Shown piece after piece: positions 31,088 through 48,008 of a DNA stretch of 64,000 nucleotides. The stretch is from the sequence record PQ724392.1. One strand, written 5' to 3'. The DNA comes from a phage. Position numbers and translations under genes: made by a program. Positions within the stretch are counted from its first letter, which is position 1, and each line of letters begins with the position of its first letter. Below the pieces are notes generated by a model. The model saw only the letters and a list, made by a program, of their open reading frames with translations. It searched no databases and had not been told where the DNA came from.

Positions 31088-31094
31088 ATAAAAA

Positions 31095-31117
31095 GGCCCC
31101 AACCAAAAGGAAGGGGC
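31095..31117 (-). terminator. Terminator of the leftward uvsY operon, after uvsY.-2
   Basis: GCCCC...GGGGC stem; on the - strand it is followed by CTTTTTATTT. Confidence 0.5.
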
Positions 31118-31144
31118 AAAACCAAAAATGGTTAACAACACTAG

Positions 31145-46192: not shown

Positions 46193-46561
46193 TTATGCGA
46201 CTTTACTCCAATTATCTAAATTTAATTCACCCTTAGCTTTCATTTTTTCAATCAGAAGGTCTGCAGTGGTGCGACCATTTTGATACCATGTAACATCTTC
46301 AGAATAACCAGTTTCTTCATCTTCATAGGTCTTACAACAAATCTTACCCAAAATCAAAGTTTTCAGTTCGTAGGTATCACCAGTAAAAAAGTTTGTTACC
46401 ATAATTTTCCAAGAGAAGTCATCAGAAGGACCTTCAGGAGTCATGCAACCAACAAATTCAAACTGTTCTTTATACAAGTGCCATTGCATCTCTTTAGTTT
46501 CAATGGCTTTGTAACCGTCGTGGTCTTTACCTTTGATGTATGAGTTAAGATTGATTTTCAT
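46193..46561 (-). CDS. Hypothetical protein (122 aa); cargo of a PeSL-like early-promoter cassette
   Basis: Preceded by TGTACA-N17-CATAAT and the conserved leader ...CCATACTGAGTTACACAATAAAACACTGGAGCATAAAATG. Confidence 0.5.
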   Translation of the reverse strand: MKINLNSYIKGKDHDGYKAIETKEMQWHLYKEQFEFVGCMTPEGPSDDFSWKIMVTNFFTGDTYELKTLILGKICCKTYEDEETGYSEDVTWYQNGRTTADLLIEKMKAKGELNLDNWSKVA

Positions 46562-46602
46562 TTTATGCTCCAGTGTTTTATTGTGTAACTCAGTATGGAA
46601 TC

Positions 46603-46631
46603 ATTATGCACTGGTCAAATCCTGTTGTACA
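46603..46631 (-). promoter_or_regulatory. PeSL-like early promoter upstream of ORF 46193-46561
   Basis: On the - strand: TGTACA-N17-CATAAT plus the conserved leader; a terminator lies immediately upstream. Confidence 0.55.
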
Positions 46632-46643
46632 CCCTTTTATGAA

Positions 46644-46670
46644 AATAAAAAAGGGACTCCGAAGAGTCCC
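46644..46670 (-). terminator. Terminator after the 53-aa ORF, upstream of a PeSL promoter
   Basis: GGGACTC-CGAA-GAGTCCC hairpin with a T-run on the - strand. Confidence 0.6.
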
Positions 46671-46675
46671 TGAAC

Positions 46676-46837
46676 TTATGCTTTCGGCTTACCAAAGCAA
46701 GCTGCATCGGCGCGCAATACCGCACGAGCACGAGCCTGAAGTTTATCAGTCACCTGATTGATTCGCTTGTTGGACGCACGCTTGTAACCAGCGCGTTTGG
46801 AGGAGCCATCAACAACTTTAACTTCTTTCTTAGCCAT
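46676..46837 (-). CDS. Small basic protein (53 aa), manually found
   Basis: Manual translation gives MAKKEVKVVDGSSKRAGYKRASNKRINQVTDKLQARARAVLRADAACFGKPKA; followed by a rho-independent terminator on the - strand; not in the ORF track (under 60 aa). Confidence 0.35.
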   Translation of the reverse strand: MAKKEVKVVDGSSKRAGYKRASNKRINQVTDKLQARARAVLRADAACFGKPKA

Positions 46838-47234
46838 ATTAAATTCTCTTTAAAAATAGAATGCAGGACTTATTGGCATTGCCTGCGCAAGCCCTCGAAG
46901 GGAACATTAGGTTTCGGATATTTAACGACAGGATAACCATAAACCTCGTCATCATACCTTATAGCTCTTATCTGTTGCACACCGTTAGCTTAAAGGTTCC
47001 GGGTTCGATTTCTCGAGGATAAGATATATACTGATGGATATATAGGCCTTGAGGCGTACTCCCGATTGGCCATCACCTCGGGGTAGCATGCACTTGCCGC
47101 TATAAGAATAACATTCAAGAGGTACACCGTAAAACTGCCGGGTCTTAAAACTATAATGATTCGCAAATCATTAATCAGACGGTTCGACGGCTCCTCGATT
47201 TTAGCTCACACTAAGGCAGTGAATCTCCAATAAA

Positions 47235-47489
47235 TTACTTCAGGGTTACGACAAAATGACGAACCGCTTTACGGGCAGCAGATGCCAGCGGCTTAGCAAA
47301 TTTCAGTTCATCTTTTGCTTCGAGCACTGCGCGAAGGTCGGTTTGAACCGGGTTAAGATGTTTGAAATACTGCAGAATTTCCAGTGCTTCGGCTTCAACA
47401 TCAATAGATGCGCCGTAGTTTTCGTGACCGTTATTCCATGCAGTGCGTTGCAGTTCAAGAGCGTGTTGTAATTGTTTGTTTAAAGACAT
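47235..47489 (-). CDS. rIII: rIII lysis inhibition accessory protein
   Basis: Start moved to the internal ATG (MSLNKQLQHALELQRTAWNNGHENYGASIDVEAEALEIL...), closely matching T4 rIII over 84 aa. Confidence 0.8.
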   Translation of the reverse strand: MSLNKQLQHALELQRTAWNNGHENYGASIDVEAEALEILQYFKHLNPVQTDLRAVLEAKDELKFAKPLASAARKAVRHFVVTLK

Positions 47490-47660
47490 TTTAGAAGCCT
47501 CAATACGAGGTGAATATTTGGTGGACACGTTCTTCTGAATTTCACTTCCTTTCGGCAAGTCTCTCAGTTGTAGTCCACCGTTTAGGATTGGCTAACCCCA
47601 TACACCAGCAAAGCTCTGTATGACATCAACCAATCCATATTATTATTTATAACGCTAATT

Positions 47661-48008
47661 TTACTTATAAAGACAAGGAACAGCTTTATAATGACAGGTC
47701 ACAAATTTCTGCTTAACTTCTTTAGCCTGCTTAAGTCCCAGTGCAACCAGAGGATGTGGAACGTTTGCAATCTTGCCAACCGGAAGAGGAGTCAAATCAC
47801 CTACTTCGCAGAATCCTTCAGGAACATCCGGACCAACCGAAAATACTTCACACATCTCCGGGATTTCACCCTGATGGAGTTTTCCGATAACGATACCTGA
47901 TGCCGTAGTTTCTTCATCACCAGCTTGCTTTGGCTCAGAAACCAAAATAATATATTCACCTACTGCTTTAATTGGTAATTCCATATTTAATCCATGTTGT
48001 TTGGTCAT
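47661..48008 (-). CDS. 31: Co-chaperonin gp31 (GroES-like, required for gp23 folding)
   Basis: Collinear with T4 gp31 (LPI.AVGEY.ILVSEP.QAGDEE...[20 protein letters not shown]...[29 protein letters not shown]); the start could instead be the internal ATG at 47984. Confidence 0.85.

Follow-up and report, generated by a model that had tools for sequence, protein, structure and literature searches.

A conserved structured RNA module with a predicted kissed four-way junction between rIII and 30.9 of T4-like phages

Introduction

The aptamers of the purine and lysine riboswitches are organized around a multi-helix junction that is locked by a kiss between two loops. T-even phages carry RNAs without known function, including the stable RNAs C and D of T4 (species 1 and 2), which are encoded in the tRNA cluster and are 120-140 nucleotides (nt) long. 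T4-like genomes also contain PeSL (promoter-early stem-loop) cassettes, which mediate the shuffling of modules in the hyperplastic regions of T4-type phages; each of these short conserved non-coding units combines a terminator-like stem-loop with an early promoter, and their order and their presence or absence vary among related phages. Bacterial small RNAs (sRNAs) that derive from 3' untranslated regions or are embedded in operons have no promoter of their own and form part of a longer messenger. In addition, a pseudoknot in the gene 32 mRNA serves as the autoregulatory site of gp32 (PMC3014915). Here we describe an RNA element that can be compared with each of these systems; it is located in the non-coding gap between rIII and 30.9 (positions 46838-47234, read on the minus strand) of a 64,000-nt stretch of DNA from a T4-like phage (sequence record PQ724392.1; "the window"), for which Escherichia phages TH40, P479, MN01, and VR26 are the closest records.

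An initial annotation of the window, made from the letters alone, had singled out this gap of about 400 base pairs (bp) as the longest stretch free of open reading frames (ORFs) and had proposed that it might encode a structured small RNA, a degenerate tRNA, or a replication or packaging cis-element. The gap was placed exactly, with 397 nt between rIII and 30.9. With regard to its coding capacity, positions 46762-47234, which include the small 30.9 gene, form a 473-nt segment without an ORF of at least 60 amino acids (aa), the next longest such segment in the window being 223 nt, although six ORFs of 25-58 aa do lie within the gap. The initial annotation further suggested tRNA and Rfam searches, RNA folding on both strands, and comparison with related phages. 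The first of these checks would have looked negative if taken alone: ARAGORN found no tRNA or transfer-messenger RNA (tmRNA) gene in the whole window, Rfam 15 gave no match over the interval either at the gathering score (whole window) or at E<=10 (46500-47700), tRNA and tmRNA models included, and the complete interval is not more stably folded than shuffled sequence (z = -0.87 for the minus and -0.42 for the plus strand), so that folding energy alone would have missed the element. By contrast, comparison with related phages revealed a series of conserved, covarying RNA modules.

Results

Module B and its predicted fold

Read on the minus strand from rIII towards 30.9, the gap consists of modules A1, A2, B, C1, and H, followed by further hairpins (Table 1), and module B forms its core. 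In the predicted architecture of B, P0 closes a four-way junction and P1 and P2 are joined by a 6-bp loop-loop kiss. A first MAFFT alignment of 24 non-identical copies gave an RNAalifold consensus of 44 base pairs, 15 of which already showed compensatory changes, and covariance model R1 was built from this consensus. R1 finds a single copy in the window (46959-47106, minus strand; 181.6 bits, E = 2e-40), even with filters off, and this copy has everything that defines R1, i.e., P0, P1, P2, P3, P3a, and P3b as well as complementary P1 and P2 loops. Divergent matches to R1 were obtained in phages Muldoon (158 bits), Cronus (155 bits), and EcS1 (104 bits), in an IMG/VR phage (L120; 100 bits), and, with the scores listed in Table 1, in JC221 and GAP161.

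Covariation across these copies is extensive. Among 25 distinct sequences, 98.7% of the cells at paired positions form standard pairs, versus 26-44% when the partners are slid by 1-3 columns; changes on both sides are found in 32 of the 44 pairs, and none of 500 shuffles attained any of these measures. Cells with G·U combinations number 59 in the helices of B and cells with A·C combinations only one, which indicates that pairing has been selected in RNA of the sense (minus) strand and neither in DNA nor in the other strand. When B is folded alone, z is -1.93 for the sense versus -0.97 for the antisense strand.

A mutual-information scan singled out one column in the P1 apical loop together with one in the P2 loop. 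In all homologues 6-7 bases of one loop can pair with the other, and the kiss occurs in seven sequence versions (CGAUGG/CCAUCG, UGAUGG/CCAUCA, CUAUGG/CCAUAG, CAAUGA/UCAUUG, CAAUGAU/GUCAUUG, UUGUAUU/AAUACAA, and UGCAUUU/GAAUGCA). Approximately 45 unpaired positions of B are invariant or nearly so, with the most divergent copies included. The comparative data establish B as a real, self-contained structured RNA family of the sense strand that includes tertiary pairing; the support from comparison is very strong, and we regard B as a candidate for a new RNA family. Covariation thus bears out strongly the structured RNA foreseen by the initial annotation, and no Rfam family matches it; at E<=10, four divergent homologues likewise gave no Rfam match over B, riboswitch and ribozyme models included. 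During construction of the model, a small helix proposed by RNAalifold (helix 4, GGY/RCC) was replaced by the kissing loop, which gives a better account of the same bases, and two candidate tertiary pairings (UGCAU/GUGCA and CCUU/AAGG) were dropped for want of covariation.

The three motifs quoted in the initial annotation are all present on the plus strand, i.e., CCCTCGAAGGG at 46892-46902, AATGATTCGCAAATCATT at 47155-47172, and GGGTTCGATTTC at 47001-47012. As short inverted repeats the first two are not significant alone, but comparison with relatives identifies them as real helices, namely hairpin H and the tip of A2. The motif GGGTTCGATTTC, described as T-loop-like, does exist, but it is antisense to the part of the core RNA in which P3a and P3b meet, on the strand that is not transcribed; moreover, its flanks CCGGG and TCTCG are not complementary and thus provide no T stem.

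Conservation and distribution of module B

The arrangement rIII-gap-30.9 is syntenic in Tequatrovirus, Gaprivervirus, Jiaodavirus, Karamvirus, Roskildevirus, Kagamiyamavirus, and Muldoonvirus, and about 1,000 phage records match the gap. Alignment of the gap places B in the window, in SP18, in fPS-65, and in phages of Klebsiella, Enterobacter, and Erwinia; the rIII-proximal part with A1 and A2 is found only in Escherichia-type phages, and the 30.9-proximal part comprises C1, H, and further hairpins. The central 148 nt are 100% identical to those of the Yersinia phage fPS-65 (Tequatrovirus), as compared to identities of 76% for gp31, 84% for rIII, and 67% for 30.9; for a Klebsiella Jiaodavirus, the corresponding values are 91% for the central 148 nt and 64-77% for the three genes. 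These comparisons show that the RNA is more strictly conserved than the proteins encoded next to it and is under strong purifying selection, and the complete identity with fPS-65 suggests a recent exchange of the cassette between genera on top of this selection.

B is also an accessory element. T4 (gap of 244 nt) and T2 (gap of 288 nt) lack exactly P0 plus B, which corresponds to a precise deletion, and B is present in 18 of 40 rIII loci from IMG/VR and absent from the other 22. In 36 of these 40 loci, 30.9 directly adjoins rIII; the non-coding spacer measures 120-398 nt in 35 cases and 38 nt in the remaining one, and none of these loci has an intact gene there; the idea of a decayed gene that is still intact in relatives, which the initial annotation had named as a possible refutation, therefore fails. 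Records with B number about 404 at the rIII locus and about 20 at a second locus near uvsY, all of them from T4-like phages of Enterobacterales, which infect E. coli, Shigella, Klebsiella, Enterobacter, Citrobacter, Yersinia, Serratia, Erwinia, and Cronobacter. A blastn search for a host origin or mimic found no match to B in 5,426 E. coli genomes or in plasmids. Exact-pattern hits outside T4-like phages in metagenome, viral, and bacterial collections, which fell in GC-rich coding DNA and metagenome-assembled genomes, were rejected by the model and attributed to chance, as were short resemblances of 9-11 nt to 16S h27, tmRNA PK1, and RNase P J11/12, which found no support in searches.

Two unusual rIII contexts were also observed. 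Escherichia phages phi92 (148.6 kb) and muut (146 kb), which we take to be unrelated to T4, carry rIII plus a gap without B, with an identity of about 93%; this suggests that a putative rIII-leader block was transferred horizontally. In two IMG/VR contigs of 97 and 150 kb (L131 and L132, at ~1720-2150), only the C-terminal half of rIII (residues 43-82) is matched, and it is followed by what appear to be several tRNA genes instead of 30.9, a context unlike that of all other rIII loci.

A second locus downstream of uvsY.-2

Full-length B also occurs past uvsY.-2, ahead of the convergent uvsW.1/uvsW genes, in JC221 (Yersinia), GAP161 (Cronobacter), and about 20 related Pseudotevenvirus-like genomes. 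In these copies every helix is re-paired with different bases, while the conserved unpaired bases are unchanged. B is followed here by module H and then by a shared bidirectional terminator, and JC221 has A1 as well; in GAP161 there is no ORF between B and the terminator, and no promoter or terminator was predicted around the JC221 copy. Together with the distribution at the rIII locus, these data show that B is gained and lost as a unit and that it does not depend on one particular neighbouring gene.

The convergent uvsW.1/uvsY.-2 junction of the window itself (31088-31144, 57 nt) is empty of B and has a GC-rich hairpin (GGCCCCAACCAAAAGGAAGGGGC) with the look of a bidirectional terminator. 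A probable unannotated small ORF (..RTLLRRP(M/I)EFTFG(G/E)VID(N/K)IPS(I/S)KG) was seen past uvsY.-2 on the plus strand in Klebsiella phage Miro (L093, ~1790-1880) and JC221 (L044, 1585-1695); it starts within or just past H, and the differences between the two versions fall mostly in third codon positions.

Flanking modules and the 30.9 leader

C1 was found in every rIII-30.9 gap examined, including a minimal gap of 120 nt, and is located 73-113 nt upstream of the 30.9 ATG. It consists of two crossing helices, S1 (GAC-g-AGG, 46944-46950, with CCUGUC, 46927-46932) and S2 (GGUU, 46935-46938, with AACC, 46910-46913), which occur in different versions (GGC..GCC and GUC..GAC for S1; GUGAG/CUCAC and GGUAGU/ACUACU for S2). 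Double changes affect 9 of the 13 pairs, and the covariation score is 0.39 versus 0.08-0.135 for slid controls. Hairpin H (CCCUUCGAGGG) lies between conserved GUA and CUUG sequences; in Cronus its stem has covaried to give GCCUUCGAGGC (GCC..GGC), and in Miro its loop is GAAA. In the position of the GCAGG..CCUGC hairpin, other genera have unrelated hairpins, and their 30.9 Shine-Dalgarno sequence is sequestered by a different hairpin with the same effect (UUCUCC-AAAA-UGGAAGA); we infer that the Shine-Dalgarno hairpin would regulate 30.9.

The stem of A1 comprises 3-5 bp and covaries (CAC/GUG, CGC/GCG, and UGC/GCA). A2 is found only in Escherichia-type T-evens, among them T4 and T2; its tip is the AATGATT..AATCATT repeat (AAUGAUU..AAUCAUU as RNA; 47155-47172), and compensatory changes include CCGU/ACGG to CCAU/AUGG (L018 and L043) and ACUGUC/GGCAGU to AUUGUC/GGCAAU (SP18), which, given the low sequence diversity, provides moderate support for the predicted fold. 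In T2-type gaps, a hairpin designated D (CACG..CAGA-AAAAGGUUA-UCUG..CGUG) takes the place of B, as observed in T2 (L005, 1199-1486) and in IMG/VR loci L094, L097, L101, and L103; its stem covaries (CAGA/UCUG to CAGC/GCUG in other phages), so that D constitutes a conserved optional RNA cassette.

The order of the modules differs by genus, with A1-A2-B-C1-H here, C1-A1-B-H in Jiaodavirus, H-B-C1 in EcL8g and EcS1, and C1-B-H in Muldoon. The shortest full gap (L109, 120 nt) is reduced to C1, H, the Shine-Dalgarno hairpin, and a single further hairpin. The first three of these most likely constitute a constant translational leader of 30.9, and A1, A2, B, and D are, on this comparison of gaps, optional inserts.

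Table 1. Positions of predicted RNA modules and neighbouring features (window coordinates, except for the last two rows)
Feature	Position	Strand	Basis or remark
Module B, 152-nt self-contained RNA core	46957..47108	-	RNAalifold 44 pairs; model R1; covariation
B: P0 closing stem	47099-47106 with 46958-46965	-	
B: P1 arm, with internal loops	47045-47098	-	
B: P2 hairpin	47025-47044	-	
B: P3 stem, branching into P3a and P3b	47018-47024 with 46966-46972	-	
B: P3a hairpin, GNRA-type, GAAA loop	47005-47016	-	Loop GAAA, GUAA, or UAAA among homologues
B: P3b hairpin, 15-nt loop	46979-47004	-	Loop largely invariant
Kissing-loop 5' strand UGAUGG, P1 apical loop	47070..47075	-	Pairs with 47032-47037
Kissing-loop 3' strand CCAUCA, P2 loop	47032..47037	-	Pairs with 47070-47075
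A1 hairpin just past rIII stop, UUCAC / 9-nt loop UGCCUUAGU / GUGAG	47205..47223	-	Covarying stem, conserved loop
A2 long irregular hairpin, closed by UCGAGG/CCUCUUGA	47115..47198	-	Two compensated helices
C1 H-type pseudoknot	46910..46950	-	Both stems covary
H small hairpin, GUN-CCCU-UCG-AGGG-CUUG (= CCCTCGAAGGG)	46888..46905	-	Conserved flanks, covarying stem
Variable hairpin GCAGG..CCUGC	46863..46886	-	Seen in sequence
Hairpin AUUCU..AGAAU, sequestering 30.9 Shine-Dalgarno	46843..46862	-	Seen in sequence
T4-type late promoter motif TATAAATA	47644..47651	-	Exact motif, upstream of rIII
rIII coding sequence, 84 aa, lysis-inhibition accessory protein	47235..47489	-	phrog_1457, E = 3e-42
gp30.9, 53 aa, Lys/Arg-rich, downstream neighbour	46676..46837	-	phrog_1427, E = 3e-26
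Intrinsic terminator after 30.9	46652..46671	-	8-bp GC-rich stem, then T run
Divergent B subfamily, L092 (GAP161)	1796-1951 of L092	+	75 bits
Divergent B subfamily, L044 (JC221)	1393-1547 of L044	+	82 bits

Neighbouring genes and transcription

The genes around the gap are all on the minus strand, in the order gp31 (47661-48008), rIII, gap, 30.9, terminator, and gp30.8. The rIII gene starts with an ATG at 47489, and its stop codon ends at 47235; records of relatives also carry the label rIII. A Pfam search with gp30.9 gave no match. Just before the rIII ATG, the ribosome-binding site lies within a hairpin (CCUC-GUAUU-GAGG; 47490-47520, minus strand), and relatives have the same motif (CCUCAUUUGAGG).

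The initial annotation had assigned 30.9 a terminator but no obvious promoter of its own, and this holds: the terminator is present, it is annotated as such in fPS-65 and Muldoon, and prediction gives neither a sigma-70-type promoter nor a terminator inside the gap (46838-47234). A terminator paired with an early sigma-70 promoter is present further downstream, past 30.9. The consensus of T4 late promoters is known, and the exact motif TATAAATA upstream of rIII is a likely source of late transcripts that would cross the rIII-30.9 interval; the terminator after 30.9 probably forms the 3' end of the transcripts that carry the RNA modules.

Discussion

Comparison with described RNAs

While B resembles the purine and lysine riboswitch aptamers in its closing helix, its multi-way junction, its two adjacent hairpins with a covarying kiss of 6-7 bp, and its invariant unpaired bases, it differs from these riboswitches in that it has no Rfam riboswitch match, no adjacent expression platform, and an intercistronic or 3' position. 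Thus, a conserved covarying fold of the aptamer kind was found, but a 5' leader with a competing expression platform was not. C1 is similar to the pseudoknot operator of the gene 32 mRNA, described for T2, T4, and RB69 (PMC3014915), as both are H-type, belong to a leader in which they precede the ribosome-binding site by about 100 nt, and have an A/U-rich sequence after them (UUAAAUAU); by contrast, sequence and gene are different, and the likeness is limited to the structure and position of C1 and does not extend to B. B and C1 thus resemble kissed-junction aptamers and the gene 32 operator, respectively, and neither is a member of a described family.

With T4 RNAs C and D, B shares its size class and its occurrence in T-even phages, but there is no homology, the locus is different, and B is absent from T4 itself; a search of T4 positions 69000-75000 with R1 and filters off gave a best score of 6.3 bits (E = 0.85), not at rnaC or rnaD. 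Like the PeSL cassettes, the modules are short conserved non-coding units whose order and presence differ between related T4-like phages, and both types occur in the same genome region; PeSL units, however, act at the level of DNA and transcription, whereas neither of their two components is predicted in the interval, whose modules are selected for pairing of RNA from one strand. Finally, B is like the sRNAs that derive from 3' untranslated regions or are embedded in operons in having no predicted promoter of its own and in probably being part of a longer messenger, in particular at the uvsY locus, where it lies between the last ORF and the terminator; it is unlike sRNAs of the Hfq type in its far more elaborate tertiary architecture, and no seed region or target was identified. 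A 2003 article by Driukas & Nivinskas in Biologija reportedly deals with the expression of rIII and 30.9, as its title says. Our literature searches returned nothing on the rIII-30.9 interval itself, although an earlier description outside Rfam is possible, e.g., in a viral RNA catalogue of more than 10,000 candidate structures (PMC10690425).

What the RNA may do

We propose that in this interval the minus-strand rIII-30.9 messenger carries a mosaic of RNA modules, each of which folds independently. Since the interval has no predicted promoter or terminator of its own, the modules are most likely produced by read-through transcription, which would start at the late promoter ahead of rIII and at more distant upstream promoters and would end at the terminator after 30.9. 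P0 would isolate the four-way junction and the kiss would lock P1 and P2 side by side, leaving the approximately 45 near-invariant bases exposed; these bases could then bind a conserved partner, which may be a protein of the host or the phage or, possibly, a small ligand. B would thereby act independently of the adjacent gene, as a decoy, sponge, or scaffold RNA or as the RNA part of a ribonucleoprotein. We give an about even chance to this interpretation of B as an accessory, autonomous partner-binding RNA domain within the messenger. It draws on the stem that closes B, the rigidity of the kissed junction, the exposure of invariant bases, the occurrence at a second locus with no ORF downstream, and the accessory distribution beside a hyperplastic region of accessory genes.

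Several observations weigh against an autonomous domain. B invariably precedes 30.9 at the rIII locus, so that a cis role is possible there, and a small ORF possibly also lies downstream of the modules in JC221 and Miro. B is dispensable in laboratory phages, as T4 and T2 are without it, and its effect may consequently be subtle or host-specific. Recent recombination between co-infecting phages, in addition to constraint, could account for part of the complete identity of B across genera. In addition, alignments derived from a covariance model are biased towards the structure of that model; nonetheless, the first MAFFT alignment had already contained 15 compensated pairs.

The strongest alternative would make B the aptamer or sensor of a riboswitch-like or protein-binding leader; B would then act in concert with C1, H, and the Shine-Dalgarno hairpin as a cis regulator of gp30.9 translation. 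The constant position of B at the rIII locus, 100-170 nt upstream of 30.9, would fit such a role, as would the occlusion of the 30.9 Shine-Dalgarno sequence by a hairpin in all lineages and the combination of invariant unpaired bases with a kiss-locked junction, which is typical of aptamers; autoregulation by gp30.9 through RNA binding is conceivable as well, given that this protein is small and basic. We nevertheless consider cis control by B unlikely. In GAP161 B resides in a 3' region with no ORF downstream; the modules that separate B from the Shine-Dalgarno sequence vary in spacing and are permuted; an alternative pairing that would link B to the Shine-Dalgarno hairpin was not found; 30.9 and its leader are retained without B in T4, in T2, and in 22 of the 40 IMG/VR loci; and Rfam riboswitch models do not match.

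More doubtful still is that the modules are elements of mRNA processing or stability (e.g., exonuclease barriers or sites for RNase E/G, RNase III, or RegB), or that B is a new self-cleaving ribozyme, which would separate or stabilise the rIII and 30.9 parts of the messenger. Processing of T4 early messengers by RegB and RNase E/G is known (PMC3014915), the modules start directly past the rIII stop codon in several genera, and at the uvsY locus they occupy the 3' untranslated region ahead of the terminator. However, a kissed four-way junction with some 45 invariant unpaired bases goes far beyond known stabiliser hairpins, P0 (8 bp) is too short for RNase III, and known ribozyme models, among them those of the hammerhead, twister, twister-sister, pistol, hatchet, and HDV-like classes, gave no match at E<=10; likewise, the GGAG in B is not conserved (it is absent from Muldoon, EcS1, and JC221) and is thus not a RegB site.

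Coding, tRNA, and DNA-level readings are essentially excluded. That the interval represents a decayed gene, small proteins, or a degenerate tRNA is barely credible: some GenBank records do show small hypothetical coding sequences over the gap, a peptide-like stretch (YD..V.GYP.VK.PKP) recurs in several lineages, and a T-loop-like motif is present, but the six ORFs of 25-58 aa have no PHROG match and are not conserved in relatives, where no intact gene is found in the gap, single-base insertions or deletions in T4 and T2 break the frame of the putative peptide yet keep the helix, compensatory changes alter codons (P/G to A/A in Cronus), and the degenerate tRNA of the initial annotation falls with the empty ARAGORN result, the absence of any tRNA or tmRNA model at E<=10, and the antisense position of its motif. 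Small "hypothetical proteins" are annotated over the modules, some on the opposite strand, in L004 at 1391-1753 (Klebsiella phage 15882-6, CDS0047-0049), in L044 at 1299-1475 (JC221_170), and in L003 at 1752-2068 (WMU95679/80), and these are most likely false gene calls. Just as improbable is a DNA-level element, whether a replication origin, a packaging signal, a recombination or homing site, or a mobile element with terminal inverted repeats, even if B is gained and lost as a unit with complementary ends (P0), modules are shuffled between genera, and this region of T4-like genomes is recombinationally plastic (PMC2839356, PMC4122927). The excess of G·U over A·C in the helices is the signature of selection on one strand of RNA and not on DNA, which also disposes of the replication or packaging element suggested initially; the sequence of P0 covaries while its complementarity is kept, unlike transposon ends; a loop-loop kiss has no rationale in DNA; no repeats, promoter, or endonuclease gene adjoin the interval; and the known T4 origins and pac site are located elsewhere.

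Implications

B may be the first of a new functional class of T-even phage RNAs. It would act in trans, as a decoy or scaffold for a conserved protein of the host or the phage (e.g., to counter host defence or to redirect an RNA-binding factor), or else be an aptamer of a new riboswitch class, and the gap would then be a "hyperplastic non-coding region" that shuffles RNA genes in the way that accessory ORFs are shuffled nearby; we consider this a tentative possibility that falls somewhat short of evenly balanced. T4 and its relatives are among the best-studied viruses. According to a review of post-transcriptional control in T4, however, no T4 riboswitch or small trans-acting RNA has been functionally characterised (PMC3014915). 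Against this background, about 400 sequenced phages, many of them candidates for therapy, carry a 152-nt RNA with a predicted kissed four-way junction and 32 compensated pairs. As a practical point, the small "hypothetical proteins" that several GenBank records place over the B RNA would be spurious. Finally, near-identical phages that naturally have or lack B (e.g., fPS-65 versus T4) make its function directly testable.

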